NCBI GenBank assembly: GCA_900766925.1
Contig: CAAFXG010000316.1
Coordinates: 3,735 to 67,734, forward strand
Length of the DNA: 64,000 bases
From: Lachnospiraceae bacterium
Lineage (GTDB): Bacteria; Bacillota; Clostridia; Lachnospirales; Lachnospiraceae
Direction: 5' to 3'
Below are positions 3,543 to 41,462 of the stretch, piece by piece (positions within the stretch are counted from its first letter, which is position 1; each line of letters starts with the position of its first letter). The notes under the pieces were generated by a model. It made no database searches, was not told the origin of the DNA, and saw only the letters and a program-made list of their open reading frames with translations. Both the position numbers and the translations under genes were made by a program.

Positions 3543-3543
3543 T

Positions 3544-4980
3544 ATGGTTAATATCATTTGTGAGATTTCAAAATATTTAATCATTTTATTTATGATTTTA
3601 TATACGGTAAAATGTTTTTCTATTTTGTCATCCAAGGACGAAGATAAAAAACGTAAAAAACTCAATAAACAGATTGTATATGTTTTTATCATACATTTTT
3701 TGTGCTACCTGACTCTGTACCTGAGATTGCATCAGATAAAAATTCTTATTTTTTATCTTGCACAGATATTTGTAGCGATACTTTACATGGTAATATATCA
3801 TTCCATATACAAGGAATCTTCGAGATTATTAACTAATAATACAGCCTTTATGCTGCTTATAGGTTATACTATACTTACAAGACTCGATTTTAATAATGCA
3901 GTTAAGCAGTTTGTAATGGCTACGGCAGGCCTTGTAATTTCAGCTTTTATCCCGTATATCATGCTAAAGTGGAAGAATATTAAGAATATGGGAACAGCAT
4001 ATGGAATAATAGGTTTGCTTTTCCTGCTTACTGTATTTATACCGGGAATAGGAAAGGCACAGTATGGTTCGCGGAACTGGATTCAAATAGGAAGCTTCGG
4101 AATGCAGCCTATGGAATTTGTCAAAATCATATTTGTGTTCTTTGTTGCCAGTATGCTTGTCAAGGCAATTACACTAAAGGATTTGCTTATTAATGCATTG
4201 ATATCGGCTGCATTCATGCTGGTGCTTGTGCTTGAGAAGGATCTTGGTGCTGCAGTTATCTTTTATGTAACTTATGTTTTTATGGTATATTTAGCAACCT
4301 CCAGGGTTATTTTCCTTATAAGCGGAATTTCTCTGGGGGCACTGGCAGTCAGTGCCGGGTATTTGTTGTTTAAGGATTCGTTGTTCCGGCATGTTCTGGT
4401 AAGAGTTGAAGCCTGGCAGGATCCGTTTGCACATATTGACGGTAGTGGATACCAGGTAGCCCAGTCGTTATTTGCACTTGGAACGGGAGGATACACAGGC
4501 TCGGGACTATGTATGGGTAAGGCAAATACTATTCCGGTTGCAAGCAGTGACTTCATATTCTCAGCAATTTGTGAAGAACTTGGTGTCATATTTGGTCTTG
4601 CACTTATTCTTGTTCTGGTGAGCATATTTATTTCATTTGCAAATGTAGCTATGAAATGTAGGAATCCATTTTATAAATATGTTGCATTCGGATTCGCATC
4701 AATATTTAGCATACAAACTCTGCTTAACCTTGGTGGTGTTACCAAATTCATACCTTCCACGGGTGTCACACTTCCTTTGATAAGCTATGGTGTAAGTTCT
4801 GTATTGAGTACATTAATTATATTTTCAATTGTTCAGGGAGTTTATGTAATTACAAGTAAAGAGGCGGATAAAATTGAAAAAGAAAGAGAAAGAATCATTA
4901 AACGCGAAGCCCTTGCTAACGGAGGAGGAGTTCCTGGAGAGAGAGCAACAAAGGGCAAAAAACAACAAAATAAAGAATAA
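3544..4980 (+). CDS. SEDS family glycosyltransferase (FtsW/RodA/SpoVE)
   Basis: 478 aa, polytopic. Motifs include GSRNWIQIGSFGMQPMEFVKI, SDFIFSAICEELG and TGVTLPLISYG. Confidence 0.85.
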   Translation: MVNIICEISKYLIILFMILYTVKCFSILSSKDEDKKRKKLNKQIVYVFIIHFLCYLTLYLRLHQIKILIFYLAQIFVAILYMVIYHSIYKESSRLLTNNTAFMLLIGYTILTRLDFNNAVKQFVMATAGLVISAFIPYIMLKWKNIKNMGTAYGIIGLLFLLTVFIPGIGKAQYGSRNWIQIGSFGMQPMEFVKIIFVFFVASMLVKAITLKDLLINALISAAFMLVLVLEKDLGAAVIFYVTYVFMVYLATSRVIFLISGISLGALAVSAGYLLFKDSLFRHVLVRVEAWQDPFAHIDGSGYQVAQSLFALGTGGYTGSGLCMGKANTIPVASSDFIFSAICEELGVIFGLALILVLVSIFISFANVAMKCRNPFYKYVAFGFASIFSIQTLLNLGGVTKFIPSTGVTLPLISYGVSSVLSTLIIFSIVQGVYVITSKEADKIEKERERIIKREALANGGGVPGERATKGKKQQNKE

Positions 4981-6373
4981 TCCAATACTTGTTATAACCT
5001 ATATGCTTGTGACGGTGTTTATGTGTCTCATCGGATATATTATATATTTTATGCAGTTTAAAGCAGAGGTTACAATAGCAAATACCAGGAACATTCGTCA
5101 GGATTCCTTTTCAGACGTTGTGGAACGTGGTGATATTATAACCAGTGATGGTGTAGTTGTTGCAACAAGTACAACGGATGAAGAGGGTAATACCACAAGG
5201 TCATATCCTTATGCTAATATGTTTGCACATGTTGTTGGCTATGACTCTAACGGGAAGTCCGGTCTTGAGCTTCAGGGTAATTTTTATATGCTGAGAACTC
5301 ACATCAATATGTTCGAGAGAATTTATAAGCAGATTAAGGAAAAGAAAAACAGGGGCGATAATCTGGTTACAACTATAAGCTACGATTTACAGAGCGCGGC
5401 TTATAATGCACTTTCAGGGTGTAATGGTGCAGTTGTGGTGCTTGAGCCTTCATCAGGTAAGATATTGGCTATGGTGTCCAAACCGGATTTTGATCCGAAT
5501 AATATGGACTATGTATGGTCATACCTGCAGTCAGAGGAAGGAGAAAAAAGCACATTATTATTAAATCGAGCCACACAGGGGTTATATGCACCTGGCTCTA
5601 CATTCAAAATTCTGACCATGCTTGAGTATATGCGTGAAAATACTGACTATGAAAGCTATGTATATGAATGTGCAGGAAATGCAATATTTTCAAATGTTCG
5701 AATCAGGTGTAGTAATGACCGGGTACATGGTACTGAGAATCTGGCAGACTCTCTTGCCTATTCGTGTAATCTTTCGTTTGCAAATATAGGTATGTCCCTT
5801 AATCTTGCAAGCTACAGAAAAACCGCCGATGAGCTTTTATATAACTCTGAGCTTCCTTATGATGGTGAATATAGTAAGTCATCGTTTGTATTAGATTCAG
5901 GCAGTGATAAGGATTCCGTTCCACAGACGGTAATCGGGCAGGGTGAAACGCAGATTACTCCATTGCATAATGCCATGATTATGTCAGCCATTGCCAATGG
6001 AGGTGTTTTGATGAAGCCTTATTTGATTGATTCTATTGTCAATGACGATGGAGCAAACATAAAAAGCTTTTCGAGCAAAACCTACGGTAGTCTGATTACG
6101 GTTGATGAAGCATCAGTTCTTACTGAATATATGAAGGGTGTATGTGATTATGGAACTGCATCCGGATACTTTGCAGGACTTGAATATGATGTGGCCGGTA
6201 AGACAGGAACGGCAGAGTATGATAATAATGGTAACTGTAATTCATGGTTTGTTGGATTTTCAAATCCTGACCAGCCCGATATTGTGGTGAGTGTTGTTGT
6301 TGAGGATTCAAATACAACAGGTGTTTCGGGAGTCTCCGTGGCACGACAGATATTTGACGCATACTATTATTAG
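4874..6373 (+). CDS. Class B penicillin-binding protein (transpeptidase) partnered with the upstream SEDS gene
   Basis: One N-terminal TM helix. Motifs are SxxK (APGSTFK), SxN (YSCN) and KTG (AGKTGTA). The start is uncertain: the listed start is TTG at 4874, which overlaps the SEDS gene by 107 nt. Confidence 0.8.
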   Translation: MKKKEKESLNAKPLLTEEEFLEREQQRAKNNKIKNNPILVITYMLVTVFMCLIGYIIYFMQFKAEVTIANTRNIRQDSFSDVVERGDIITSDGVVVATSTTDEEGNTTRSYPYANMFAHVVGYDSNGKSGLELQGNFYMLRTHINMFERIYKQIKEKKNRGDNLVTTISYDLQSAAYNALSGCNGAVVVLEPSSGKILAMVSKPDFDPNNMDYVWSYLQSEEGEKSTLLLNRATQGLYAPGSTFKILTMLEYMRENTDYESYVYECAGNAIFSNVRIRCSNDRVHGTENLADSLAYSCNLSFANIGMSLNLASYRKTADELLYNSELPYDGEYSKSSFVLDSGSDKDSVPQTVIGQGETQITPLHNAMIMSAIANGGVLMKPYLIDSIVNDDGANIKSFSSKTYGSLITVDEASVLTEYMKGVCDYGTASGYFAGLEYDVAGKTGTAEYDNNGNCNSWFVGFSNPDQPDIVVSVVVEDSNTTGVSGVSVARQIFDAYYY

Positions 6374-6378
6374 AATTC

Positions 6379-6407
6379 TTGCTATATTATCCAAAATCTG
6401 ATATAAT
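6379..6407 (+). promoter_or_regulatory. Sigma-A type promoter for the NUDIX gene
   Basis: TTGCTA (6379-6384), 17-nt spacer, TATAAT (6402-6407) preceded by TG. Confidence 0.5.
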
Positions 6408-6454
6408 ACCTCATGAAATGTGTACACACCAATTATTTTGCAGGAGGGATTGCA

Positions 6455-6907
6455 ATGGTTGAAGCAACAAGCTGTGGTGGTGTGGTAATCTTTAGAGGTA
6501 AGATATTATTACTTTACAAAAATTACAAAAACAAATATGAAGGATGGGTGCTTCCGAAGGGAACTGTGGAAAAGGACGAGCAGCATAACGAAACTGCCCT
6601 TCGTGAGGTTAAGGAAGAGACAGGAGTCAGTGCCCAGATAATTAAGTACGTAGGAAAAAGCAACTACACATTCAATACTTCATATGATGTGGTGAACAAG
6701 GATGTTCATTGGTATCTTATGATGGCTGATAGCTATTATAGCAAGCCTCAGAGAGAAGAGTATTTTTTGGACTCAGGTTACTACAAGTATCATGAGGCTT
6801 ATCATCTTCTTAAGTTTCCTAACGAGAAGCAGATTTTAGAGCAGGCGTATTCAGAATACACTACACTTAAACAGAATAATCTGTGGGGAAGCAAGAAATA
6901 TTTTTAA
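6455..6907 (+). CDS. NUDIX hydrolase
   Basis: Nudix box GWVLPKGTVEKDEQHNETALREVKEETG. I prefer ATG 6455 (RBS AGGAGGG 8 nt upstream) over ATG 6413, which lies only 6 nt after the predicted -10. Confidence 0.8.
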   Translation: MVEATSCGGVVIFRGKILLLYKNYKNKYEGWVLPKGTVEKDEQHNETALREVKEETGVSAQIIKYVGKSNYTFNTSYDVVNKDVHWYLMMADSYYSKPQREEYFLDSGYYKYHEAYHLLKFPNEKQILEQAYSEYTTLKQNNLWGSKKYF

Positions 6908-7024
6908 ACATGTAACTAACAGTTGTCGCACCTTGGATATTTAGATGTAAGGCTGACTGAAAATGTCGGCATTTTACTTCCTAAAATATCACAGGTGCGA
7001 CAGTTACATTTATAAGGAGAATTT

Positions 7025-7867
7025 ATGTCTAAACCCAAAAGGAAATCAAAAATTATATATGTTGTTTGTATGGTGCTTCTAATTTGTATTTTTGTCGGTT
7101 GTGCAATTTATCTGGTAAAATATTTCTGGGAAAGCCACGAGAGTGAAGAAATGTTTGATGAGTTAAAGACTCTAATCGTTGAGGATGATAGTTCCATAGA
7201 CAGAGGCAATGAAGGAAAAATCAGTTCACCGTCAGACAGCTCTTATTCAGAACAAAAGATTGAATATATTGATATTGACGGAGTGATGGTTTCAAAAAAA
7301 TTCGGGGAACTATATAAACGAAATAAGGATTTCATCGGATGGCTTACAATTAATGATACATGTATAGATTATCCGGTAATGCAAAGCATGTACGAGGAAG
7401 AATTTTATATTCATAAGGATTTTGACGGACAGTACAGTGCTGCCGGAACTCTTTTTACAGATACATCATCGTATGTTGACAAACCAAGTGATAATATATT
7501 GATTTACGGGCACAACATGAATAGTGGCAAGATGTTTCATAGTCTTATTAATTATGAGAAGGAGGACTTCTATAAGGCGCATAAATTTATTCAGTTTGAT
7601 ACAATATATGATAACGGAATATATGAAGTCATTGCGGCCTTTAGAACCCAGATATATGATGCCGGATATGAGGGATTCAAATATTATACGTTTTTTGATG
7701 CCAAAGATGAGACAGAATTTGAGGAATATATTTCAAATTGCAAAGCCTTAACACCGTATTCGATTGATGCAACTGCAACCTATGGAGATAAGCTGATCAC
7801 TTTATCTACCTGTGCATATCATACGAGTGACGGAAGATATGTTGTAGTTGCTAAGAAGATAAAATAA
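7025..7867 (+). CDS. srtB: Class B sortase
   Basis: N-terminal TM anchor. Motifs are IGWLTINDTCIDYPVMQ, catalytic His in LIYGHNM, catalytic Cys in LITLSTC, and a downstream Arg (GRYVV). Confidence 0.8.
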   Translation: MSKPKRKSKIIYVVCMVLLICIFVGCAIYLVKYFWESHESEEMFDELKTLIVEDDSSIDRGNEGKISSPSDSSYSEQKIEYIDIDGVMVSKKFGELYKRNKDFIGWLTINDTCIDYPVMQSMYEEEFYIHKDFDGQYSAAGTLFTDTSSYVDKPSDNILIYGHNMNSGKMFHSLINYEKEDFYKAHKFIQFDTIYDNGIYEVIAAFRTQIYDAGYEGFKYYTFFDAKDETEFEEYISNCKALTPYSIDATATYGDKLITLSTCAYHTSDGRYVVVAKKIK

Positions 7868-7892
7868 CAATTAAATAATCTGATAACATTTC

Positions 7893-7921
7893 TTGACAAA
7901 TATAAGCTTATATGATATAGT
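7893..7921 (+). promoter_or_regulatory. Sigma-A type promoter for tRNA-Leu
   Basis: TTGACA (7893-7898), 17-nt spacer, TATAGT (7916-7921), 12 nt before the tRNA 5' end. Confidence 0.6.
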
Positions 7922-7933
7922 TTCGTTTGTTAA

Positions 7934-8017
7934 GCCGGTGTGTCGGAATTGGCAGACGAGGCAGACTCAAAATCTGTTGATGGCAACATCGTGCGGGTTC
8001 AAGTCCCGCCACCGGCA
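7934..8017 (+). tRNA. tRNA-Leu, anticodon CAA (type II, long variable arm)
   Basis: Hand-folded cloverleaf. Acceptor GCCGGTG/CACCGGC, anticodon stem GCAGA/TCTGT with loop CTCAAAA, 15-nt variable arm (GATG/CATC), T-arm GCGGG-TTCAAGT-CCCGC, discriminator A. CCA is not encoded. Confidence 0.93.
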
Positions 8018-8020
8018 TTG

Positions 8021-8067
8021 AATGAGGAAATAGCTAGTTGATATGTCTAGGTATTTCCTCATTTTTT
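8021..8067 (+). terminator. Intrinsic terminator after tRNA-Leu
   Basis: Stem AATGAGGAAATA (8021-8032) pairs with TATTTCCTCATT (8052-8063) and runs into a T-tract. Confidence 0.8.
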
Positions 8068-8105
8068 GATTAGTTGGTTGATACCGTAATCGATAGGGGG
8101 ATAAT

Positions 8106-8828
8106 ATGCAATATACAATACTCTTACTGGAGGATGATATGGCACTTGCTATGGGAATTGAATATGCGCTTAAAGGTGAGGGATATAATGTAGTTCATGC
8201 TGCTACAATCAAACAGGCAAGAGCATGGCTTGATAATAATACTAACCTTTGTAATAAAGGTATTGCTGCTTTGTTTGATGTAATGCTGCCGGATGGAAAC
8301 AGCTTTGATTTACTTAAAGAATACCGGAGAAAGGGAATAAGCATACCAATAATATTTTTAACCGCAATTTCAGACGAAATAAATGTAGTTCAGGGATTGG
8401 ATCTCGGTGCAGATGATTATATCGCAAAGCCCTTTCGTGTTAGAGAGCTTATTTCAAGGCTTAAGGCTGTGCTTAGAAGATACGAAGTGAATGCAGACAG
8501 CATTATTACATATGGTGATTTGGTTGTTGATATGAATACCGCCAAGGTCTACAAAAAAACAGATAAAGACGAGTCGGTTTATCTTGATCTTACTGCAGGA
8601 GAATATAAAATGCTTTTATATTTCCTTCAAAATCAAGGAGTTATATTATCCAGAAATTTAATACTGGAGCATCTGTTTGATAACAATGGTAATTTTATTG
8701 ATGATAACACTTTGTCTGTTTATATTAAACGATTGAGGGAAAAGCTTGGTGACACTGACAAAAAACACCCTTATATAAAAACTGTCAGAGGAATAGGCTA
8801 TATTATGGAGAAGGAAAATGCTTATTAA
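8106..8828 (+). CDS. OmpR/PhoB-family response regulator (BceR-like)
   Basis: Receiver domain with LLEDD and the phospho-acceptor context LFDVMLPDG. C-terminal winged helix ...LSVYIKRLREKL...IKTVRGIGY. Confidence 0.9.
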   Translation: MQYTILLLEDDMALAMGIEYALKGEGYNVVHAATIKQARAWLDNNTNLCNKGIAALFDVMLPDGNSFDLLKEYRRKGISIPIIFLTAISDEINVVQGLDLGADDYIAKPFRVRELISRLKAVLRRYEVNADSIITYGDLVVDMNTAKVYKKTDKDESVYLDLTAGEYKMLLYFLQNQGVILSRNLILEHLFDNNGNFIDDNTLSVYIKRLREKLGDTDKKHPYIKTVRGIGYIMEKENAY

Positions 8829-9816
8829 TAAAGAATCAAAATTATTTACAATTGTATTTTTTATTGTATTCATTGCATCAATAATATTTGGTTACAGCAT
8901 AAATGAAGGTATCCTATATATTATATTTCAGGAAGTATTAATTATAATTATCTATATTTCAGGTATATATTCACTTAATAAAATTAATAAAGATATAGTA
9001 AATATACGTCATTTTACAGAAAAAACAGAAAATTGTTTTGAAAAATATGATGAGGGTGAAATTGGAAAATTGGCTGGCAGCATTGAAAGCGTTCGACATA
9101 AGCTGGAGGAAGCTGAACAAAGACAACGCCGTGAGAAAGAATTCCTGCGAGATATTATTTCCGATATATCACATCAGATTAAAACTCCTGTTTCAGCTCT
9201 TACGGTCTTTAATGACATTATGCTCGATGCCATAGAAGATGAAAAATTAAGAAATATACTGCTTCAATCTGAGCTGCAGCTTGAGAGAATAACCTGGCTT
9301 GTTGAAGCAATGCTTAAGCTTGCAAGAATAGAAGCAGAATCGGTCGTATTCGAGAAAAAACCCGTTGACATTAATAAGCTTTTAATATCCTGCGCCAACA
9401 TGCTGAAAATAAGAGCAGATGAGAAAAAAATTGATTTTAATATAAACGGACAGGCGATGTTATCAATTGATGAAGAATGGACTAAGGAAGCAATTATTAA
9501 TATTATGAAAAATGCAATCGATTATGGCCCGGCTAAATCTGACATTGAGATTACAATAAAACAAACACCTATATCAACTAAGCTTATTATAAAGGATTAT
9601 GGTAATGGAATTGAAGAAAAGGACAGGCTGAATATTTTTAAACGTTTTTATCGTGCAGCAACAAACGAAGTTAATCCAAACAGTGTTGGAATCGGACTTT
9701 CACTTGCAAAAAGCATAATAGAAGGGCAGGATGGCAAAATATGGGTGGAAAGCAGACATATCTCAGAATGCATAAAGGATGAACAGTCTTATACAAGCAT
9801 GGTAATAATGTTCTAG
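8818..9816 (+). CDS. Intramembrane-sensing histidine kinase (BceS-like)
   Basis: Two N-terminal TM helices with almost no external loop. H-box ISDISHQIKTP, N-box NIMKNAIDYG, G-boxes DYGNGI and GIGLSLAK. Overlaps the regulator gene by 11 nt. Confidence 0.85.
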   Translation: MLINKESKLFTIVFFIVFIASIIFGYSINEGILYIIFQEVLIIIIYISGIYSLNKINKDIVNIRHFTEKTENCFEKYDEGEIGKLAGSIESVRHKLEEAEQRQRREKEFLRDIISDISHQIKTPVSALTVFNDIMLDAIEDEKLRNILLQSELQLERITWLVEAMLKLARIEAESVVFEKKPVDINKLLISCANMLKIRADEKKIDFNINGQAMLSIDEEWTKEAIINIMKNAIDYGPAKSDIEITIKQTPISTKLIIKDYGNGIEEKDRLNIFKRFYRAATNEVNPNSVGIGLSLAKSIIEGQDGKIWVESRHISECIKDEQSYTSMVIMF

Positions 9817-9977
9817 ACCAATTAAATTCAAATAATTTGTTGAAATAATTCAATAAAAATTGTATTATATATTTGGATAATTATGGCTAAAATCAAGTTT
9901 TTTACGTTATATATTTGCTATAACGCCTTGAGTTACCTAAATAGATTGTAAATTAGAATTACACAGGGAGGTTCATA

Positions 9978-12683
9978 ATGAATAAGAGTAAAAACAGTTT
10001 AAAACGTATTAAGAAATCTGCAGCATATATTATGGTTGCCATAATGGCAGGAACTTGTCTTAATCTGCCGGCAAATACTATGAAAGTTATGGCGGCTGAA
10101 CAGGGCACAATAGCCAATTCAACATTTCAAACTGAATACACCTATGGAGACACAATTAATCCTACAACAGAAATGTTCTCAATTAATAATAGCTCTGCCG
10201 TCCCGAGCTTTACCTGGTACTTAGGTGATGTAACGGAAGGAGAGCTTGATTCCACGCAGGCATTAGAGGCAATCCCAACAGATGCAGATACATATACTCT
10301 GGTTGTTTCAATTGAAGAAGATGATAATTATTCAGCGGCTGAGCTACGTATTAAGGTTGTAATTGAACCGAAGGTTCCTACAGCACCTACAGCACCGGTT
10401 ATCAGTAATGACGACATTACAGATACATCGGTAACTATTACGATACCTTCTCCTGCAGATGAAAATGATACAACTAAATATGAATATCTGTGTATAAAGA
10501 GTAGTGATGTTACGAATGAATATAATCCGGCAGAGAGTACAGGCTGGACAGAATCTAACATATTTAATGATTTGGATGCAAACACAGCCTATACATTTTA
10601 CCAAAGAATTGCAAAAGTAGACGATAATACAATAGAATCTGCACCAAGTGGTTCTACTGAGGTTACAACCCTTAAGACAGACATTACCAACAGTGCAGTT
10701 GTAACGGTACAGGGTACATATACATATACCGGTTCGGCGATTACCCCTGAAGCAGCAAATGTTACAGTATCAGTTAATGATACAAATATAGACTCTTCTA
10801 AGTATACGTTTTCTGCATCTGATAATATTAATGCTGGAACAGCTACAATTACTGTTACAATGAACAACGATGCTGAATTTACCGGCAGTCCTACCGGCAC
10901 ATTTACCATTGATGCAGCTACCCTTGCAGATTATACACTCCCGACCGCTTCAGATATTGAATACGGAGAGACATTGGCAGACAGTGAGCTTACAGGTGGG
11001 TCAGTTTCATTTAATGAACAGACAGTAGAAGGAACATGGAGCTTTAAAAATCCTAATACTAAGCCGGATGTAAATACAGAGGGAGCTTTATTTGAAATTG
11101 TTTTTACGCCGGGTACTAACTATAATCCAATAGAGAATGTATCCGTAAATGTAAAGATTAATTATGGAACTGCTCCTAATCCGCCGGAATCAACAGCTGC
11201 ACCGACTTATGGCAAAGATAAAACTGTTGCTGATGTGAGCTTACCGGCCGGTTGGTCATGGAATAACGAAGATGCCACAAAAGCACTTATAGTCGGTACA
11301 GAGGTAGAAGCAACGGCAAATTATACGGCAGATGATGCCGATAATTATTCCGCTGAAAGTAAGAGCGTTACCATTAAGATTATAATGTCAGATTGTCCAC
11401 ATTCACATAAGTCAACTATTAATGCTAAGACTGAAAGCTGCACATCGGAGGGCTACACCGGTGATACATGGTGCAGTGATTGTGAAAGTGTAGTTACCCA
11501 AGGTAGCAAAATTCCAAAGAAGTCGCATAATCTTAAAAAGACTGCGGCAGTTGAGCCAACATGTGTTTCGAATGGCAATATTGAATACTGGACATGCTCA
11601 TCTTGTAAAAAAATATATTCAGACTCTAAGGCTACAACTCAGGTGACTAATACTAAGCTAACTATTGATTCAAAAAATCATAAGAGCATAGATATTAAGG
11701 GAGACAAGGCTCCAACCTGTTCAGAAGAAGGATATACTGGAGATACATTTTGTTTGGATTGCAGGACAACCGTTAGTTATGGAAAACCAATCGACAAAAT
11801 TGAACATTCCCCTAAGACTGCAGTCAAGGAAAATGTTGAGGAAGCAACCTGTACAACAGCAGGTTCATATAATTTGGTTGTATATTGCTCAGAATGTGAC
11901 AGTGTTATCAGTAGCACACACAAAGTAATACCTGCATTAGGACATAAGCTTACCAAAACTGCTGCAGTTGCACCAACCTGTAAGAAAAAAGGTAATAAAG
12001 AGTATTGGACCTGCTCGGTTTGTGACAAAATTTATAGTGATTCGAAGGCAACAAACGAAACAACTAAGAGCAAAATGACTCTCAGGATTGATTCAGATAA
12101 TCATGTCAATATTGTCATCAGATATGCAAAGGCACCTACATGTGTTAAATATGGATATACAGGTGATACATATTGTAAGGATTGTGGTAAGCAGATTGAT
12201 ACCGGAGATATTATCAAAAAGCTGCCTGTTCCTGCGAAGGGTAAAACTCTTACTGATACCAAGACTATGGCTAAGTACAAGGTTACGAAATCCGGAACCA
12301 AGGGTGGAACGGTAACGTATGTTAAGTCAACTAACAGTAAAGCAACTAAGGTTACTATTCCATCGACAGTTAAAATTGACGGTATTACATATAAGGTAAC
12401 TGCAATCGGTGCAAACGCATTCAAATCCAATACCAAAATTAAAACTCTGGTAATCGGCTCTAATATTGAAAGCATAGGCAAAAATGCGTTCTATGGTGCA
12501 AAGAACCTTAAGTCTGTTACAATTAAGACTGCTAAGCTCACCTCCAAAAAGCTGGGCTCAAAGTCATTTAGTAAGCTTAATTCCAAGGCAGTCATAAAGG
12601 TTCCTTCAAAGCAATTAAAGAACTACAGAACAATTCTCAAAAAAGCCGGAATTACAGGTAAAAATCAGAAAATAACCAAATAG
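9978..12683 (+). CDS. Secreted/cell-surface protein with Ig/MBG-like repeats, six His-Cys3 modules and a C-terminal BspA-type leucine-rich repeat region
   Basis: 901 aa with RBS AGGGAGG. The signal peptide ends ...MKVMAAEQG. Repeated modules PTCxxxGxxxxxxCxxC are present. The LRR-like C-terminus reads IPSTVKIDGITYKVTAIGANAFKSNTKIKTLVIGSNIESIGKNAFYGAKNLKSVTI. No LPXTG-type sorting signal. Confidence 0.8.
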   Translation: MNKSKNSLKRIKKSAAYIMVAIMAGTCLNLPANTMKVMAAEQGTIANSTFQTEYTYGDTINPTTEMFSINNSSAVPSFTWYLGDVTEGELDSTQALEAIPTDADTYTLVVSIEEDDNYSAAELRIKVVIEPKVPTAPTAPVISNDDITDTSVTITIPSPADENDTTKYEYLCIKSSDVTNEYNPAESTGWTESNIFNDLDANTAYTFYQRIAKVDDNTIESAPSGSTEVTTLKTDITNSAVVTVQGTYTYTGSAITPEAANVTVSVNDTNIDSSKYTFSASDNINAGTATITVTMNNDAEFTGSPTGTFTIDAATLADYTLPTASDIEYGETLADSELTGGSVSFNEQTVEGTWSFKNPNTKPDVNTEGALFEIVFTPGTNYNPIENVSVNVKINYGTAPNPPESTAAPTYGKDKTVADVSLPAGWSWNNEDATKALIVGTEVEATANYTADDADNYSAESKSVTIKIIMSDCPHSHKSTINAKTESCTSEGYTGDTWCSDCESVVTQGSKIPKKSHNLKKTAAVEPTCVSNGNIEYWTCSSCKKIYSDSKATTQVTNTKLTIDSKNHKSIDIKGDKAPTCSEEGYTGDTFCLDCRTTVSYGKPIDKIEHSPKTAVKENVEEATCTTAGSYNLVVYCSECDSVISSTHKVIPALGHKLTKTAAVAPTCKKKGNKEYWTCSVCDKIYSDSKATNETTKSKMTLRIDSDNHVNIVIRYAKAPTCVKYGYTGDTYCKDCGKQIDTGDIIKKLPVPAKGKTLTDTKTMAKYKVTKSGTKGGTVTYVKSTNSKATKVTIPSTVKIDGITYKVTAIGANAFKSNTKIKTLVIGSNIESIGKNAFYGAKNLKSVTIKTAKLTSKKLGSKSFSKLNSKAVIKVPSKQLKNYRTILKKAGITGKNQKITK

Positions 12684-26456: not shown

Positions 26457-26648
26457 ATATAAAAAAAGCGTGATTCTGTCGGCACCGGCTGTATATATAG
26501 CTAATAAAAAGACCGTTTGGCAACGTCAGCACTTAACGAGCGTGTTTTTAGACGAGTTTAGTACTGTTACGTTGACAACCGAGCGGGAGTAAGTCTTATT
26601 ATTAGCTATATATACAGCCGGTACCGACAGAATCACGTTTTTTTATAT
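26457..26648. repeat. Giant hairpin element copy 1: about 53-bp stem with A-tract/T-tract flanks and a 79-nt apical core
   Basis: I paired it base by base. Positions 26461-26513 pair with 26593-26644 with only an A.A (26508/26598) and a C.A (26483/26623) mismatch. The core 26514-26592 is homologous (as reverse complement) to the core of copy 2. Confidence 0.8.
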
Positions 26649-34737: not shown

Positions 34738-36696
34738 ATGTACGACTACTATAGAACCGCGGTAGCGGTACCTGATATAAAGGTCTGCGATGTTCAATAT
34801 AATACACAGGAAATTATCAGCAAAATTAACGAGGCAAATAAGGAATCAGTTAAACTGATTACATTTCCGGAGCTTTCTCTTACCGGATACACCTGTGCCG
34901 ACTTATTTCTGCAGGAGCTTGTAATAACAGAGGTCCATAAGGGACTGAGCCAAATTCTTAACGCTTCCTGTGGTCTTGATATGATTATAGTGGTTGGCGC
35001 ACCTGTAAGGCTTTCATACCAGCTTTTTAATTCAGCAATTGTAATTTACAATGGACAGATACAGGGAATTAATGTAAAGACATTTATCCCTAATTATAAT
35101 GAATTTTACGAAAAAAGATGGTTTTCCTCAGCTTCAGAGCTTGATGCAGAAGAGGTATCATCCAGAGAAATACTTGGAAATGAATGCACTGATAATTATT
35201 ACATTCCAATTGGTAATGATATAATTTATCGGGTAAATGACGAGCTTACCTTCGGTATTGAAATATGTGAGGATGTATGGTCACCTTTACCGCCATCTAC
35301 CTGGATGGCAATGTCAGGAGCAGAAGTTATTCTGAATCTGTCAGCCAGCAATGACACAATAGGCAAACGTGATTACAGAAGACAGCTTATCAAAAGTCGT
35401 TCGACAGCTCTAATGTGTGAATATATTTATGTATCATCAGGAAGCTCAGAAAGTAGCACAGACCTGATTTTTTCCGGTCACAGCCTCATAGCTGAAAATG
35501 GAAGAGTTTTGATTGAAAACGAAAAAATAGTTGACAATAATTATATTATGGTATCGGATATGGATTTGGGAAAAATTCGTGCGGACCGTTTGAAGGGAAA
35601 AACCTTCAAGGATACCTACAGATTGTATGGAAAAGAGCATAGTATTCGTCAGATAGAATTTAATATGGAGTGTAATTTGACGTCTGACGGTTCAAAATAT
35701 AGAATCAATCCACGACCTTTTATTCCGTCATCCAAAAGCAAACGACTTGAACGTTGCAGGGATATATTTGACATGCAGGTCGGTGGACTTGCAAAACGTA
35801 TTTCAATAACAGGCGGAAAGATGGTAATTGGTGTATCGGGCGGAATGGATTCAACCCTGGCACTTCTGGTAGGTGCCCAGACACTTAAGAAGCTTGGAAG
35901 GCCAATGACAGACCTTGTTGGTATTACCATGCCGGCCTTTGGAACAACTGACAGAACCTACAATAATTCACTGACATTAATGAAAACCCTCGGAATAAGT
36001 ACTGAAACAATTCCAATAAAGGATGCATGTATACAGCACTATAGGGATATTGGACATGATATCGAGGTTAAAGATATTACCTTTGAAAATGTTCAGGCAA
36101 GGGAGAGAACACAGGTATTAATGGATTATGCCAACAAAATCGGAGCGATTGTGGTAGGTACCGGCGATTTATCCGAGCTTGCTCTTGGCTGGTGCACATA
36201 TAATGCAGATCAGATGAGTATGTATGGTGTAAATGCAAGTATTCCAAAAACTCTTGTAAAATGGCTTATTGACAGTGTTGTCCAATACAACCTGTTTCCG
36301 GACAGCAGTGAGGTATTAAAGGATATTATTGAAACTCCTATTAGCCCCGAGCTTCTGCCACCTGATGAAAATGGCAATATATCACAGAAAACTGAGGATT
36401 CTGTCGGACCATATGAATTACATGATTTCTTTTTATACTATGTAATGCGTTACGGCTTTTCACCATCAAAAATATATTATATGGCTACCCGGGCATTTGA
36501 TGGTGATTATGATTCCTGCACAATCCTTAAATGGATGAAAACATTTTACAGGAGATTTTTTAGTCAGCAGTTTAAAAGAAGCTGTATGCCGGATGGTGTA
36601 AAGGTAGGTAGTGTATGTCTCTCACCAAGAGGCGACTGGAGAATGCCTTCCGATGCCTCAGTTAATATATGGATGAAGGAGCTTGACAATTTATAA
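34738..36696 (+). CDS. nadE: Glutamine-dependent NAD+ synthetase
   Basis: 652 aa. N-terminal CN-hydrolase domain (FPELSLTGY, EICEDVW) plus a synthetase domain with the PP-loop GVSGGMDST. Confidence 0.9.
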   Translation: MYDYYRTAVAVPDIKVCDVQYNTQEIISKINEANKESVKLITFPELSLTGYTCADLFLQELVITEVHKGLSQILNASCGLDMIIVVGAPVRLSYQLFNSAIVIYNGQIQGINVKTFIPNYNEFYEKRWFSSASELDAEEVSSREILGNECTDNYYIPIGNDIIYRVNDELTFGIEICEDVWSPLPPSTWMAMSGAEVILNLSASNDTIGKRDYRRQLIKSRSTALMCEYIYVSSGSSESSTDLIFSGHSLIAENGRVLIENEKIVDNNYIMVSDMDLGKIRADRLKGKTFKDTYRLYGKEHSIRQIEFNMECNLTSDGSKYRINPRPFIPSSKSKRLERCRDIFDMQVGGLAKRISITGGKMVIGVSGGMDSTLALLVGAQTLKKLGRPMTDLVGITMPAFGTTDRTYNNSLTLMKTLGISTETIPIKDACIQHYRDIGHDIEVKDITFENVQARERTQVLMDYANKIGAIVVGTGDLSELALGWCTYNADQMSMYGVNASIPKTLVKWLIDSVVQYNLFPDSSEVLKDIIETPISPELLPPDENGNISQKTEDSVGPYELHDFFLYYVMRYGFSPSKIYYMATRAFDGDYDSCTILKWMKTFYRRFFSQQFKRSCMPDGVKVGSVCLSPRGDWRMPSDASVNIWMKELDNL

Positions 36697-38210
36697 TGAA
36701 ATTAAACGATCTGTTGAAATATAATGATATAACCATTCAATGCCATGACAATCCTGATGCAGATGCAATTGCATCAGGCTATGGTTTATATTGCTTTTTT
36801 CATGCCATGGGCAAGAATGTAAAGCTTATTTACAGCGGAAATAATATTATTCAGAAGGCAAATCTTACCCTTATGATTGAAAAGCTTAACATACCGATTG
36901 GCTATTTCTCACCAACAGAGGTATCTGAGCATAAAATTAAGGGGCTGCTGATAACGGTAGATTGTCAGTATGGTGCGGGTAACGTGACTAAAATAGAAGC
37001 TGACACAATAGCAATAATTGACCATCATCAGATAGAGATAAATAATATTGACTTAAGCCTAATCATGCCCGGTATCGGAAGCTGTTCAACAATTATATGG
37101 AATATGCTGACGGAAGAAAACTTCAATATCTCAGATGATTTAGGTACAGCCTTATATTACGGATTACTGACAGATACTAATCAGTTTACGGAAATGCATA
37201 CTCCATTGGACAGAGATGCTCAGGACGGAATCTCATTTAATAATTCTTTTATTTCACTATTTTGTAATTCCAATATTTCACTTCGTGAGCTTGAAATAGC
37301 CGGAATTGCAATGCTTCGCTACAGCTTTAATGAAGATTATAATTTTGCAGTTATTAAAGCACAGCCCTGTGACCCCAATATTCTCGGATTAATCAGTGAC
37401 TTTTTATTACAGGTACATGAAATATTCACCTGCGTTGTATATAACGAGGTACCCGGTGGTTTTAAACTATCGGTGAGAAGCTGTGTGAGAGAAGTAAATG
37501 CAGGTGAGCTTGCTTCATTCCTTACCCAGGATTTGGGTTCAGGCGGAGGTCACTACCAGAAGGCCGGAGGATTTATAAGTAAGAAGCTTTTTGATGAAAA
37601 ATATACAAGTCTGCATTCAGAAGCGTATTTTAATAACAGAATGGTAGAATATTTCAATAATTATGATTTGGTTTATGCCAATGAATATGAGGCAGATATC
37701 GAATCTATGAAATGCTACAGAAAGAAGAATATCCCTGTTGGTTACGTTAATGCCTATGAGGTTCTTCCGGTCGGTACCCCTATAACAATTCGTACACTTG
37801 AGGGTGACATTGATATGCAGATAGAAGAAGACCTCATCATAATGATAGGTATTAAGGGAGAAGTATATCCAAACAGAATTGAAAAATTCAAGCGTTCCTA
37901 CAAGCCGCTTCCTGATAAATACATTTATAATAAATATGTAATTAACAACGATTATGAGCCTGTAATTAAGGACAGAAATACCGGTGAGATAAAGCCCCTT
38001 ATTGATTATGCAAAGGTTTGTGTTACAACCGGAGAAGTACAAATATACGCAAAGCCGATAGAAAAGGATGTAAAGGTATTTACAAGCTGGGATCAGGAAA
38101 AATATATGAAGGGCAGGATAGGGGATTATCTTGCTGTTCGAACTGATGATTTACATGATGTATATATAGTTGAGCAGAACATTTTCCAAAGAACATATGA
38201 ACAATTATAG
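36696..38210 (+). CDS. DHH/DHHA1 family phosphoesterase with a roughly 170-aa C-terminal extension of unknown family
   Basis: Motifs are HDNPDADAIAS, ITVDCQ, IIDHHQ, GLLTDTNQF and the DHHA1 motif GSGGGHYQKAGG. The ATG overlaps the nadE stop (TAATG). Confidence 0.8.
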   Translation: MKLNDLLKYNDITIQCHDNPDADAIASGYGLYCFFHAMGKNVKLIYSGNNIIQKANLTLMIEKLNIPIGYFSPTEVSEHKIKGLLITVDCQYGAGNVTKIEADTIAIIDHHQIEINNIDLSLIMPGIGSCSTIIWNMLTEENFNISDDLGTALYYGLLTDTNQFTEMHTPLDRDAQDGISFNNSFISLFCNSNISLRELEIAGIAMLRYSFNEDYNFAVIKAQPCDPNILGLISDFLLQVHEIFTCVVYNEVPGGFKLSVRSCVREVNAGELASFLTQDLGSGGGHYQKAGGFISKKLFDEKYTSLHSEAYFNNRMVEYFNNYDLVYANEYEADIESMKCYRKKNIPVGYVNAYEVLPVGTPITIRTLEGDIDMQIEEDLIIMIGIKGEVYPNRIEKFKRSYKPLPDKYIYNKYVINNDYEPVIKDRNTGEIKPLIDYAKVCVTTGEVQIYAKPIEKDVKVFTSWDQEKYMKGRIGDYLAVRTDDLHDVYIVEQNIFQRTYEQL

Positions 38211-38218
38211 GGGGAAAC

Positions 38219-40702
38219 ATGGATAATAAATATTTATATGATGCATTTATAAGCTACAGACACACAGAAATAGATAAGTTTGTAGCTGAAACCTTACATA
38301 AGGAATTAGAATCATTTAAATTACCCAAAAAGCTTCGTAAAACAGGTGGTAGAGCAAGAACAAAAATAAACAGAGTATTTCGTGATAAGGATGAGCTTCC
38401 TTTAACCAGCAATCTTGAAGATCCAATTATTAATGCATTAGAGCAATCGGAATTTCTTATTGTAATCTGCTCGCCAAGACTTCCGGAATCAATCTGGTGC
38501 CAAAAAGAGATTGAAACATTTATAAGCATGCATGGAAGGCACAAGGTTCTAGCCGTTCTTATAGAAGGCGAACCTGACGAGTCCTTCCCTGATGCACTTT
38601 TATTTGATAATGTAACTGTACAGAATGAAGACGGTTCAACAAGTATCATCAAAAAACCTGTTGAACCACTTGCAGCAGACTTCAGGGGCTCAACCAAAAA
38701 GCAGATTAAAAAAGCTATGAAATCGGAAATATTAAGACTGCTTGCTCCAATGTTCGATCTGTCGTATGATGATTTAAAGCGACGCCACAGAGAAAGGAAA
38801 ATACGTAAAATAATAGGTGTATCTGTAGCCGTATCCATTGCAAGTATATTGTTTGCCGGCTACAGCGCAATTATGGCTCATAAAATTCAAAAACAGAATA
38901 TAAAAATTGAACAACAGTCACAGGAGATAGAAGCTCAAAATGAAAATCTGAAAATACAGGCTGAGGAAATTGAGGCACAGAATCAAAATCTTAAGCTTGA
39001 GCAGGCAAGAAGCTTAGCAAAGAACGCCGAAAATCTCCTTGCCAGGGACGACAGATATGGTGCTGTTAAACTGGCTTACGAAGCTGTAACGGATTATGAA
39101 GGTATGGAAATGCCTCTTACCCCGGAGGGCAGACTTGCACTGACCGAGTGCCTTGGTCTTTATGATGGTTGTTCAAATGTAAGTGCTGTTAAGCAGCTTG
39201 AAACACCCGGCATTATAGATTCAATAAAGGTGTCACCTGAAAAAGATTTATTACTTACCCTGGACAGTATCGGAAACCTTATACTATGGAATGTATCAGA
39301 CAGTAATAAGCTTATCAGTATAACAGAGCCAAATGGAATTCTGTCATACGATTTTATAAATGAAGATTCATTTTTCTATTTAAATAACGAAAATAAACTA
39401 ATAAAGGTTAATATAGCAGACAAAAACGAAACATTATATACAAGCTCAGATTCAATATTTGGAGATATTTATAATGCAATTTCAACTCCTGATGGTAAAA
39501 AAATAATTGTCCGTGAGATGTATTCATATGTGGTTCTGGATGCAAAAAATCTTACGGAAATATCAAGGTATGACGTACCATATGATATAGTCAATACTAA
39601 AATTATGTGTTCAGATGATTCCTCTGAGGCATACATTTTTGCACAAAATGAGGATGACGGATTATCTGTAATCTCCTTTAATATCTCTGACGGAAGTCAG
39701 ATTATTCAAAGCGATGCACCTGCCGGTATAATTTCCGATGTATGTAACAATTCAACCGGTATTTATGTACTCAGCTTTGATTTTGCAAGCTATAATTCTT
39801 TAAAGTCCGTAGTAACAGCCTATGACAGGACAACAGGTGAAATTAAATGGACAAGAGAAGAGGACGCAGTAGTAGCAAATAAGATGTATTATTCTAACAA
39901 GGACGGTAATGGTTTCATACTTGTGGTATCAGACCACGAGAGCCGGTTAATTGATGCAGGAACTGGCGAACAGATTAAATATTATATTACGGATACCGAA
40001 GCTGTTACCTGTAAGCTGAGCCAAAACGGTGATTTTATATTATATACTTCCGATGGTGTATGTCATTATATAAATACTACAAAGGATAAAATGGATGTAG
40101 GTCTTCAAACCATAGTATGTAACAATATTTCATTATTGGATATCACAACCTCCGGATGTGTTGGTGTACCGGAAAATGATAATCGTGTAATTATCTACAC
40201 ATATCGAAGAAACCTCGACTCAGCAGTATTTGATGGCGAACTCGCAGAAGCTTTAACAACAAATGAAACTGATGATTCCATACTTAATGAATGGGGCAAA
40301 GAAAACGGAATTGAAAGAGCTGCATTTATAAGTACATACTTAAATATTCCTGATGCAAACCTTGTTTTAGTTGCTTTCGTTGATGAATCCATTGAATTCT
40401 ACAGAGCTGATACAATGGAGTTTCTGACACATTACGATGATTTTAATGCAATGATGTGTGATTACTATGGTGAAGTAGATGGCTTATACTATATAACAAC
40501 CGTTACGGAAGGAATAGCTGTAGATAAAGACGGAAATATAATAAGCAGAATTGATGAAATGTGTGGTCTCTCTAAAGATTTGAAGCAGGTGGTTGTCTAT
40601 GGCCGTGATGAAAACGCCAAGCAGTGCCGGATTTCAATTCCTATCTACTCATTTGAAGAAATAATAAATCGTACCAAAGAATTCCTTGGTACAGAGGAAT
40701 AA
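38219..40702 (+). CDS. TIR-domain transmembrane protein with coiled coil and beta-propeller-like C-terminal region
   Basis: aa 5-135 read YDAFISYRHTE...VFRDKDELPL...FLIVICSP...SIWCQKEIE (TIR_2-like). KRRHRERKIRK is followed by a TM helix IIGVSVAVSIASILFAGYSAIMA (aa 198-220). A QNxNLK coiled coil follows, then about 550 aa with WD40-like strands (for example GNLILWNV). Confidence 0.8.
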   Translation: MDNKYLYDAFISYRHTEIDKFVAETLHKELESFKLPKKLRKTGGRARTKINRVFRDKDELPLTSNLEDPIINALEQSEFLIVICSPRLPESIWCQKEIETFISMHGRHKVLAVLIEGEPDESFPDALLFDNVTVQNEDGSTSIIKKPVEPLAADFRGSTKKQIKKAMKSEILRLLAPMFDLSYDDLKRRHRERKIRKIIGVSVAVSIASILFAGYSAIMAHKIQKQNIKIEQQSQEIEAQNENLKIQAEEIEAQNQNLKLEQARSLAKNAENLLARDDRYGAVKLAYEAVTDYEGMEMPLTPEGRLALTECLGLYDGCSNVSAVKQLETPGIIDSIKVSPEKDLLLTLDSIGNLILWNVSDSNKLISITEPNGILSYDFINEDSFFYLNNENKLIKVNIADKNETLYTSSDSIFGDIYNAISTPDGKKIIVREMYSYVVLDAKNLTEISRYDVPYDIVNTKIMCSDDSSEAYIFAQNEDDGLSVISFNISDGSQIIQSDAPAGIISDVCNNSTGIYVLSFDFASYNSLKSVVTAYDRTTGEIKWTREEDAVVANKMYYSNKDGNGFILVVSDHESRLIDAGTGEQIKYYITDTEAVTCKLSQNGDFILYTSDGVCHYINTTKDKMDVGLQTIVCNNISLLDITTSGCVGVPENDNRVIIYTYRRNLDSAVFDGELAEALTTNETDDSILNEWGKENGIERAAFISTYLNIPDANLVLVAFVDESIEFYRADTMEFLTHYDDFNAMMCDYYGEVDGLYYITTVTEGIAVDKDGNIISRIDEMCGLSKDLKQVVVYGRDENAKQCRISIPIYSFEEIINRTKEFLGTEE

Positions 40703-40735: not shown

Positions 40736-40939
40736 ATAAAAAACTGCCTGTGGCATAGGTTTTCCGCCCGGCAGTATATATGTATATGAACTAAGACACG
40801 CTCTCGCTCGGTTGTTCACGTAACGGTACTAAACTCGCGTAAAATGCACGCTCGTTAAGTGCCGACGTTCTCAAACGGTCTTAGTTCATATACATATATA
40901 CTGCCGGGCAGAAAACCTATGCCACAGGCAGTTTTTTAT
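40736..40939. repeat. Giant hairpin element copy 2: 62-bp stem with A-tract/T-tract flanks and an 80-nt apical core
   Basis: Positions 40736-40797 pair with 40878-40939 with a single C.A mismatch (40765/40910). The core 40798-40877 matches the reverse complement of the copy 1 core at about 65 of 80 hand-aligned positions. Confidence 0.8.
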
Positions 40940-41020
40940 TGTACAAATAATTATAAGAGCGTTTTAACGGACTTATAAAATGGTATATTATAACTGTTCA
41001 AGAGCAGACCGGTCAGAATA

Positions 41021-41116
41021 CGAATATTTGTTCGAAATAAATATTGACAAACGAACAAATGTACGTTATATTATATACAAGTCAATCGAACAGACGTTTA
41101 CAAGAACATTTGTTTA
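41021..41116. promoter_or_regulatory. Cluster of four LexA (Cheo box) operator candidates overlapping a sigma-A promoter
   Basis: The boxes are CGAATATTTGTTCG (41021-41034), CGAACAAATGTACG (41052-41065), CGAACAGACGTTTA (41087-41100) and AGAACATTTGTTTA (41103-41116), against the consensus CGAAC-N4-GTTCG. The promoter is TTGACA (41044-41049), 17-nt spacer, TATATT (41067-41072). Confidence 0.55.
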
Positions 41117-41135: not shown

Positions 41136-41462
41136 ATGAGAACACATGATACAGCTTATTTTATTCATAGAAATTTAAAATCAATTCTTGGAGGAATTAT
41201 TCTTTTACTTGTTTTAGGTATTCTTATTCTTGGAGTTTTTAATATTAACAGCAAGGCTTCAAATTATAATCAGAAGTATTTCAAGTGTATAGATATTTGC
41301 TATGAAGATACACTTTGGACAATTGCAGAAGAATATATGACAGAAGAGTATAAATCAGTTAATGATTACATCGAAGAAGTTAAGAGTATTAATGGTCTTA
41401 CAAGCGATAAAATTTACAGTGGTGCGACCTTAGTTGTTCCATACTACGCAGCACCCATGTAA
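41136..41462 (+). CDS. Small TM + LysM protein, YneA-like SOS cell-division inhibitor candidate
   Basis: 108 aa from ATG 41136 (RBS AAGGAGG 8 nt upstream). N-terminal TM helix ILGGIILLLVLGILILGVF. C-terminal LysM domain YEDTLWTIAEEY...INGLTSDKIYSGATLVVP. Confidence 0.65.
   Translation: MRTHDTAYFIHRNLKSILGGIILLLVLGILILGVFNINSKASNYNQKYFKCIDICYEDTLWTIAEEYMTEEYKSVNDYIEEVKSINGLTSDKIYSGATLVVPYYAAPM

Follow-up and report, generated by a model that had tools for sequence, protein, structure and literature searches.

A TIR receptor gene next to a DHH/DHHA1 phosphoesterase gene with a divergent PGDYG-type module: a candidate two-gene nucleotide-signalling module of Lachnospiraceae

We analysed a stretch of 64,000 nucleotides (nt; hereafter, the window) of a Lachnospiraceae bacterium (GenBank assembly GCA_900766925.1, contig CAAFXG010000316.1, positions 3,735 to 67,734 of the forward strand), in which genes for an NAD+ synthetase (nadE), a long DHH/DHHA1 phosphoesterase (DHH-long) and a TIR-domain protein follow one another at 34738-40702. 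Comparative sequence data support a functional link between DHH-long and the TIR protein. The two genes (36696-38210 and 38219-40702) probably form a nucleotide-signalling module, in which a TIR sensor would act through the C-terminal PGDYG-type module of DHH-long with the enzyme as output, and nadE is an unrelated housekeeping bystander, no more than a chance neighbour in this genome.

Genes and proteins of the locus

The nadE stop codon TAA and the DHH-long ATG share one base (TAATG at 36694-36698, with open reading frame (ORF) coordinates and sequence in agreement). The ATG of the TIR gene at 38219 starts 8 nt after the DHH-long TAG (38208-38210), is preceded by its own ribosome-binding site, AGGGGGA, and is separated from the TAG by GGGGAAAC. 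A simple scan of 34738-40702 gave no convincing + strand terminator before the giant hairpin that follows the TIR gene. The first-pass annotation of this DNA had described the string in the same way, as tightly coupled. The same-strand genes upstream (hflX, rsmF, an unassigned ORF, a pseudouridine synthase gene and recU) are packed with gaps of at most 47 nt, and since this packing is equally tight up to hflX, the spacing says nothing specific about the coupling of nadE, DHH-long and TIR. The features are collected in Table 1.

Table 1. Features of the nadE, DHH-long and TIR gene string (aa, amino acids; positions are those of the window)
Feature	Position	Strand	Evidence
nadE, glutamine-dependent NAD+ synthetase, 652 aa	34738..36696	+	NF002730 equivalog; CN_hydrolase and NAD_synthase domains
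DHH-long, DHH/DHHA1 phosphoesterase with C-terminal PGDYG-like module, 504 aa	36696..38210	+	Pfam DHH, motifs, AlphaFold2 (AF2) model
Catalytic DHH (aa 12-156) and DHHA1 (aa 217-296) domains	36729..37583	+	Pfam, motifs, Foldseek
C-terminal all-beta module, aa 326-504	37671..38207	+	AF2 model, BFVD, PGDYG hidden Markov model (HMM)
Divergent PGDYG-type domain, aa 378-501, last ~125 aa of DHH-long	37827-38198	+	PGDYG HMM
TIR, transmembrane, coiled-coil and beta-propeller-like protein, 827 aa	38219..40702	+	Pfam TIR_2, ThsB_TIR
Cytoplasmic TIR domain, aa 5-190	38231..38788	+	Conserved motifs, profile matches
Putative catalytic Glu97 of TIR	38507-38509	+	S-x-W-C-x-x-E-I motif
Predicted transmembrane helix, aa 198-220, N-in/C-out	38810..38878	+	Kyte-Doolittle, flanking charge
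Predicted extracytoplasmic region: coiled coil (aa ~222-275), then propeller-like sensor	38882..40699	+	Weak Pfam matches
Giant hairpin, 62-nt arms, 80-nt loop	40736..40939	no strand	Complementarity, RNA folding

DHH-long is predicted by fold and motifs to be a NrnA/Pde2-like phosphodiesterase that hydrolyses its substrate. Pfam detects DHH above the cut-off (56.3 bits) and DHHA1 below it (21.4 bits, cut-off 25.9). The catalytic motifs, that the first-pass annotation had listed as complete, are all present and invariant in 25 orthologues (D21/D23, D89, D109-H110-H111, D160, G283-G284-G285-H286). The AF2 model (predicted local distance difference test score, pLDDT, 84.6) has the two-lobed DHH plus DHHA1 fold, and its residues 1-325 superpose on TM1595, GdpP, Rv2837c, NrnA and DhhP with Foldseek E-values of 1e-18 to 1e-15. 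The same two-domain fold and all catalytic motifs are shared with NrnA, Pde2, Rv2837c/CnpB, TM1595, DhhP and the GdpP catalytic domain, but DHH-long differs from the stand-alone DHH/DHHA1 enzymes by an additional PGDYG-type beta module of ~180 aa and by its genetic coupling to TIR. It is not an NrnA equivalog (NF053633, 21.8 bits, cut-off 350), and its 504 aa exceed the ~310-340 aa of the two-domain NrnA. The GdpP architecture is absent as well: DHH starts at residue 12, no PAS or GGDEF match was obtained, and there is no transmembrane segment (maximal hydropathy 1.56). The family is large, with more than 4,000 matching proteins of ~505 aa; the 120 best-scoring matches are 60-70% identical to the query over the full length. 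PADLOC gave no match for nadE or DHH-long.

The extra C-terminal region of DHH-long, that the first-pass annotation had noticed without assigning it, was confirmed at residues ~326-504 (~180 aa). Modelled alone (AF2, pLDDT 90.7), it is all-beta and two-lobed. No match was found in PDB by fold (Foldseek, best E 0.15) or by sequence (best E 0.38), or in NCBIfam. Against BFVD, the whole module matched uncharacterised viral proteins and PGDYG proteins (E 2.7e-9 to 3e-4), and its last ~55 residues also matched PGDYG proteins. Pfam PGDYG (PF14083) gave weak matches in 4 of 17 orthologue modules (best E 0.009), and no match at E<=0.01 in the window protein (gathering score 27 bits), while an HMM built from the canonical PGDYG domains of longer relatives matched aa 378-414 and 445-501 with E 3e-8 in a small database. 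The longer relatives carry an extra genuine PGDYG domain, scoring up to 98 bits. We provisionally assign the region as a divergent PGDYG-type (PF14083) beta module. Its last ~125 aa align to the canonical domains of PGDYG proteins, that occur in bacteria and phages, but the window domain falls below the Pfam cut-off, is preceded by a beta subdomain and has an insert of ~30 aa, with the motif G-R-I-G-D-Y-L-A-V. PGDYG is an uncharacterised Pfam family, so the comparison gives no mechanism.

The TIR protein passes the Pfam cut-offs for TIR_2 (38.7 bits, cut-off 28) and ThsB_TIR (24.2 bits, cut-off 21.2), and its profile matches the TIR domains of TLR2/6/15 and of the plant proteins L6, AtTIR and Roq1. 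Five motifs (YDAFISYRH, RxFRDxxELP, WCxxEIETF, EGEPxxSFP, EPLAADxRG) are kept in at least 90% of 46 orthologues. E97 lies within S-I-W-C-Q-K-E-I, whose W, C and E do not vary among 17 aligned orthologues and are present in at least 90% of the 46; this segment matches the catalytic-glutamate helix known from the enzymatic TIRs (plant and bacterial TIR NADases), and an NADase activity may be predicted from it. The only hydrophobic segment, aa 198-220 (Kyte-Doolittle maximum 1.96), has the N-terminal flank KRRHRERKIRK with a net charge of +5, and the predicted topology is that of a type II membrane receptor, N-in/C-out. Weak PQQ_2/WD40-type Pfam matches at aa 479-612 suggest that the C-terminal ~600 aa are propeller-like. 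Median pairwise identity over the same genome pairs is 29% for the ectodomain and 68% for the TIR domain.

A repeat-type extracellular or ligand-sensing domain, a single transmembrane segment and a cytoplasmic TIR domain are the layout of Toll-like and plant TIR receptors, and the S-x-W-C-x-x-E motif is also plant-like. In contrast to these receptors, the order is inverted, with TIR N-terminal and the sensor C-terminal, the sensor is propeller-like rather than built of leucine-rich repeats (LRR), and death-domain adaptors are absent; the comparison implies no shared ancestry outside the TIR domain. PADLOC returned only weak domain-level TIR matches for this protein (PDC-S66 and SAVED-TIR). The TIR-domain protein search returned mostly gene fragments. 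Tandem duplicated genes of the same TIR, transmembrane and propeller type were observed at four loci (L074, L101, L165, L167), which suggests diversification of the sensor region.

Distribution of DHH-long, TIR and module proteins

The pairing was examined from both sides. For the DHH side, a scan of one genome per species gave 80 Lachnospiraceae loci, which were analysed by tblastn and neighbour clustering, and 77 species were informative. An intact TIR orthologue lies directly downstream of DHH-long in 45 of the 80 loci, typically at a distance of -17 to +90 nt. TIR fragments follow it in 6 loci (five remnants with room for a gene, one cut by a contig end), 27 loci have no TIR behind DHH-long, and in 3 the sequence stops before this could be judged. 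The genes on either side vary, and the pair is preserved in at least 10 unrelated contexts. A frequent context runs guaB, GGDEF/EAL, IMP cyclohydrolase, purH-like, DHH, [TIR], glnS, DUF2225, MocR; glnS, DUF2225, the purH-like gene and guaB were not found within the window. On the DHH tree, TIR-less species fall into at least 8 separate clades, and this scatter indicates an ancestral pair with repeated TIR loss.

In an abundant gut species, DHH and then TIR stand behind mtnA/mtnB-like genes. At L085-L088 (6001-8874), from an abundant gut species whose protein occurs in 886 index blocks, the TIR gene after DHH-long is called as three ORFs of 188, 365 and 410 aa, the sign of either a split or a decaying gene. 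Truncated remnants of TIR were also observed at L014, L017 and L026.

For the TIR side, a metagenome scan with a TIR-domain profile gave 80 loci, 69 of them informative. DHH-long lies directly upstream of TIR in 17 of the 69 and close to it in other arrangements in 6 of the 69; these include the reverse order, TIR then DHH (L131, L156), a divergent pair (L135) and pairs with inserted ORFs between the genes (L096, L130). A Thermoclostridium TIR orthologue also stands alone, and the family of TIR, transmembrane and propeller proteins thus extends beyond the pair. No alternative conserved partner of the stand-alone TIR orthologues was found, their neighbours including tatD, ksgA, a MATE transporter gene and ABC genes.

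Over the same genome pairs, the median identity is 70% for the catalytic part of DHH-long and 63% for its C-terminal module, with 84.5% for glnS, 89% for the purH-like protein and 53% for DUF2225. Where both species carry TIR, the catalytic part is 65.7% and the module 59.8% identical (difference -5.8), and where both lack it, the values are 67.4% and 53.1% (difference -14.5). This is suggestive of faster divergence of the module, and not of the catalytic core, where TIR was lost in Lachnospiraceae, in a comparison of species pairs that are not independent of one another, which weakens it as support for our interpretation.

The nadE gene behaves differently. The first-pass annotation had proposed a NAD-centred module of three genes, in which NadE would provide NAD+, TIR would use it up or turn it into a signal, and DHH would remove that signal. 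In its favour, NAD+ is an established substrate of TIR domains and small nucleotides are hydrolysed by DHH enzymes, nadE overlaps the DHH-long start, and no terminator intervenes. Against it, no nadE homologue lies within 6-8 kb in any of the 80 genome loci found via DHH or the 80 metagenome loci found via TIR. The gene packing is as tight further upstream, through recU, the pseudouridine synthase gene, rsmF and hflX, and nadE scores as an ordinary housekeeping equivalog. NF002730 is matched with 848 bits (cut-off 473), with CN_hydrolase at aa 7-283 and NAD_synthase at aa 361-568, the N-terminal glutaminase plus C-terminal synthase arrangement of the long-form glutamine-dependent enzyme. The DHH-TIR part of the proposal stood, by conserved adjacency, permutation and fusion, and DHH-long and TIR do co-occur in related genomes, but never beside nadE (0 of 160 loci); the three-gene module is largely refuted by synteny, and we regard it as very improbable. 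The fallback, a TIR gene inserted behind a housekeeping nadE-nrnA pair, fails also, nadE-DHH being the unconserved pair and DHH-TIR the conserved one. In this genome, nadE is probably co-transcribed with DHH-long and TIR.

Neither nadE nor recU, miaB or mutS was found near DHH-long in the 80 Lachnospiraceae loci (L001-L080). The upstream neighbour of DHH-long in other genomes is a purH-like gene, mtnA/mtnB-like genes or an unrelated gene. The genes just upstream are often those of nucleotide metabolism with very short gaps, such as the purH-like AICAR transformylase gene with IMP cyclohydrolase and guaB, the mtnA/mtnB-like genes and, in the window, nadE; this may be coincidence or a hint at a TIR-independent role of the enzyme.

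When 1.84 billion representative proteins were searched with a profile, the module was detected in 480 representative clusters, with Desulfovibrio, Synergistaceae, Betaproteobacteria, Desulfobulbus and Clostridia among the source names; no close relatives were found on viral contigs. By Pfam on the proteins of non-standard length, DHH-DHHA1-module is the majority architecture. Others are the same with a second canonical PGDYG domain, the same with HAD, DHH-like-module-GGDEF, REC-class III cyclase-X-module, X-module, module-PGDYG and TIR_2-DHH-DHHA1-module. The module is thus retained with different enzymes attached to it, namely DHH, a class III cyclase, GGDEF or an added HAD. REC-cyclase-X-module fusions of 750-850 aa were observed in P0325, P0327, P0312, P0360, P0353 and P0376.

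TIR is adjacent or fused in 7 of the 9 contexts of module proteins examined (8 loci and the fusion protein P0389), a tenth contig, that of P0337, being too short to use. Four of the loci hold DHH-module-PGDYG proteins. P0316 of Desulfovibrio (L174) has a TIR-LRR gene upstream with a 4-nt overlap, P0375 (L175) two TIR genes downstream, P0300 (L180) a gene for a 525-aa TIR protein 4 nt upstream, and P0379 (L179) a gene for TIR with tetratricopeptide repeats (TPR) two genes downstream and a TPR-CHAT gene upstream. The DHH-like-module-GGDEF protein P0271 (L176) stands divergently to a 932-aa TIR protein, and the X-module protein P0308 (L170/L171) is encoded in a TIR-cyclase-X-module-Metallophos operon. 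No TIR gene was found beside the DHH-module-HAD protein P0369 (L178), and none was seen on the 4.4-kb contig of the REC-cyclase-X-module protein P0325 (L173).

P0389 (L169, 367-2436), in a cluster of 14 proteins from independent assemblies, is a TIR_2-DHH-DHHA1-module fusion; its DHH-long part shares 35% identity with the DHH-long of the window across the full 504 aa, and its TIR belongs to a different subfamily. The sequences point to a TIR-module association that recurs across distant bacterial phyla, sometimes as a fusion. The L170/L171 operon is a second, DHH-less form of it, and encodes at L170, 2388-6640, TIR_2 (296 aa), a class III nucleotidyl cyclase (508 aa), an X-PGDYG-like module protein (340 aa) and a Metallophos phosphoesterase (210 aa). 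The L179 region (862-11011), with a 1314-aa TPR-CHAT (caspase-like protease) gene upstream and genes for a 304-aa unknown protein and then the 1007-aa TIR-TPR protein downstream, looks like a larger conflict-type locus.

Hairpin and neighbouring genes

The hairpin reported behind the TIR gene is real: its arms at 40736-40797 and 40878-40939 (62 nt each) are 98% complementary around an 80-nt loop, and the RNA fold has a minimum free energy of -130.7 kcal/mol (z = -18). An A-run precedes it and a T-run follows it, and it likely marks the end of the transcription unit. A 62-bp stem with an 80-nt loop is far beyond the usual range of terminators, and the simple terminator scan did not call it. A second copy with a 52-nt stem lies at 26462-26644, between an MCP gene and thiC. 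Each copy follows a + strand gene (the MCP gene and TIR, respectively), and an A-run and a T-run border it. The ~80-nt loops of the two copies are ~88% identical over 65 nt, and the arms are also related over their inner ~30 nt, while the outer arm halves differ in sequence yet stay self-complementary. We found no Rfam family, no blastn match in phages or plasmids, no copies in the 168 fetched loci and no match of the hairpin core in viral contigs. The simplest reading is a small palindromic repeat element, inserted into or doubling as a bidirectional terminator.

Downstream of the hairpin, two Cheo/LexA-like boxes, CGAATATTTGTTCG and CGAACAAATGTACG, were observed at 41020-41072, overlapping a near-consensus promoter TTGACA-17-TATATT. 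The small transmembrane LysM gene behind them (41136-41462; likely true start, the Met at ~41136) opens the next transcription unit, and its product resembles the SOS-induced division inhibitor YneA. The other neighbours of the TIR/DHH pair in the window are nadE and this LysM gene, with no Pfam match to SIR2, SLOG or Macro.

Candidate mechanism and alternatives

The functional link of DHH-long and TIR follows from their adjacency in many contexts, the permuted gene orders, the fusion and the recurrence of TIR beside module proteins in other phyla. In the candidate mechanism, a cue at the ectodomain would oligomerise the TIR domains, which would cleave NAD+ (or another nucleotide) to a small signalling nucleotide. 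The signal, or the TIR domain itself, would act on the PGDYG-type beta module of DHH-long, and the module would control the DHH/DHHA1 phosphodiesterase and shift the level of its substrate, for which pApA, cyclic di-AMP (c-di-AMP), pAp, nanoRNA and 2',3'-cyclic nucleotide monophosphates are candidates. The module is favoured as the element coupling to TIR, because TIR and the module are constant across lineages while the enzyme varies. The sequences show the domain content, the conserved catalytic residues, the membrane topology signal and the comparative-genomic link of TIR with the PGDYG-type module; the NADase activity, the identity of the signal, its binding to the module, the DHH-long substrate and the output, whether phage defence or normal physiology such as sensing of the envelope or the environment, are inferred.

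Several observations weigh against this interpretation. DHH-long is intact without an adjacent TIR gene in ~27 of the 77 species (a TIR gene elsewhere in these genomes is not excluded), and the enzyme must therefore also have a TIR-independent role. On the TIR side, 46 of the 69 loci have no DHH within 6 kb, with TIR domains 52-68% identical, so the receptor can stand alone or use other partners. The DHH-(TIR)-glnS-DUF2225 order is syntenic in Lachnospiraceae, and the adjacency is partly simple vertical inheritance. The GGGH motif of DHHA1 reads SGGAM in P0389, with the histidine lost and the DHH motifs I-IV kept, and in this fusion the phosphoesterase may have changed or lost its activity. 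The module has no solved homologue in the PDB sequence and fold searches and no known ligand. The locus itself has a housekeeping neighbourhood with no defence island and no matching PADLOC model.

Some of these points would also follow if the pairing were coincidental inherited synteny, with DHH-long as a housekeeping nanoRNase or pApA phosphodiesterase, its C-terminal domain aiding substrate handling, and TIR acting independently. The retention of DHH-long after TIR loss, the many stand-alone TIR orthologues, the synteny of DHH, TIR and glnS in many Lachnospiraceae and the moderate, housekeeping-like evolution rate of DHH-long would all be accounted for. The recurrence of the association with unrelated TIR architectures in Desulfovibrio, at a TonB-dependent receptor locus and elsewhere would not, nor would the permuted order, the fusion and the faster divergence of the module after TIR loss; TIR is a rare domain that chance would very seldom place beside the module in 7 of 9 independent contexts, and we consider such coincidence distinctly improbable. 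The intact catalytic motifs of DHH-long could instead point to an off-switch, in which its active site hydrolyses the TIR-made nucleotide and the module only tunes specificity. The substrates of DHH phosphodiesterases include a variety of nucleotides, both cyclic and linear, and the L170 operon also has a Metallophos phosphoesterase. Ring nucleases clear cyclic oligoadenylate in this way, and a further precedent is MAD, the archaeal membrane-associated DHH-DHHA1 nuclease of Sulfolobus type III CRISPR signalling, which degrades this Cas10-made second messenger (Zhao et al. 2020, cited in PMC7824862). As in our pair, an enzyme of the DHH/DHHA1 kind is linked to second-messenger immunity there, whereas DHH-long is soluble and partnered by a TIR protein. 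Such clearance of the signal, as the first-pass annotation had it, is disfavoured, because in other lineages DHH is swapped for synthases (class III cyclase, GGDEF) while the module and TIR stay, so that TIR keeps the module, and not the hydrolase, as its partner; the window pair has no evident separate effector beside it either, and an off-switch appears unlikely.

Phage defence of the Thoeris-like abortive-infection type, in which TIR would sense infection and DHH-long would be the killing or arresting effector, switched on via the module, is a further alternative. The TIR partners bear repeats of the pattern-recognition type (propeller, LRR, TPR), the TIR gene is patchy and repeatedly lost, the sensor region evolves fast, tandem TIR paralogues occur and L179 has a CHAT-TPR neighbour. 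Stand-alone PGDYG proteins are common in phages, where they could be sponges of the same signal. Thoeris also shares the two-gene logic, a TIR protein beside a protein with a putative sensing module and an enzymatic output, and the window TIR passes the ThsB_TIR cut-off. Unlike Thoeris, the pair has no ThsA effector (no SIR2, Macro, SLOG or transmembrane-type ThsA); in its place stands a DHH phosphodiesterase bearing a PGDYG-type module, the TIR protein has a membrane anchor and an ectodomain, and the locus is housekeeping and vertically inherited, so that the pair of a ThsB-type TIR and a ThsA effector that defines Thoeris is not found here. The housekeeping context and vertical inheritance within Lachnospiraceae, the 68% conservation of the TIR domain, the lack of a PADLOC model for DHH-long and its persistence without TIR argue against defence, and an ectodomain outside the membrane would be odd for sensing phage replication. 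We therefore regard a dedicated phage-defence role as rather unlikely, and prefer the two-gene nucleotide-signalling module with its output left as stated above.

A wider proposal is more tentative. The PGDYG-type module may be an unrecognised receptor or coupling domain for TIR signalling that defines a cross-phylum family, in which TIR sensors with propeller, LRR or TPR repeats drive interchangeable DHH, class III cyclase and GGDEF outputs; we hold this joint claim as a possibility somewhat short of an even chance.

The pair has no model in Pfam, NCBIfam or PADLOC, and in the literature, of which our coverage was incomplete, we found neither a description of a TIR and DHH pair nor any mention of PGDYG, so that this absence is no proof. 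The kind of system, nucleotide signalling by TIR, is known; what appears to be new, on sequence grounds, is its partner domain and its output. The reading of nadE as part of a NAD module is tempting but wrong and is corrected here.

Immune signalling in bacteria, plants and animals has the TIR domain as its common enzymatic core, and, to our knowledge, each new TIR partner so far has brought to light another signal molecule or another effector logic. In the present case, a TIR receptor with the layout of a Toll-like receptor would be connected, via PGDYG, to a c-di-AMP/nanoRNA-class phosphodiesterase. Dominant gut Lachnospiraceae commonly carry the pair, with one orthologue present in 886 assembly-index blocks. 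If the proposed module is true, it would give PF14083 its first functional context, would predict a link of TIR signalling to housekeeping second-messenger or nanoRNA pools, and would offer a tractable two-protein system leading from an extracellular cue to a nucleotide signal in Gram-positive commensals.

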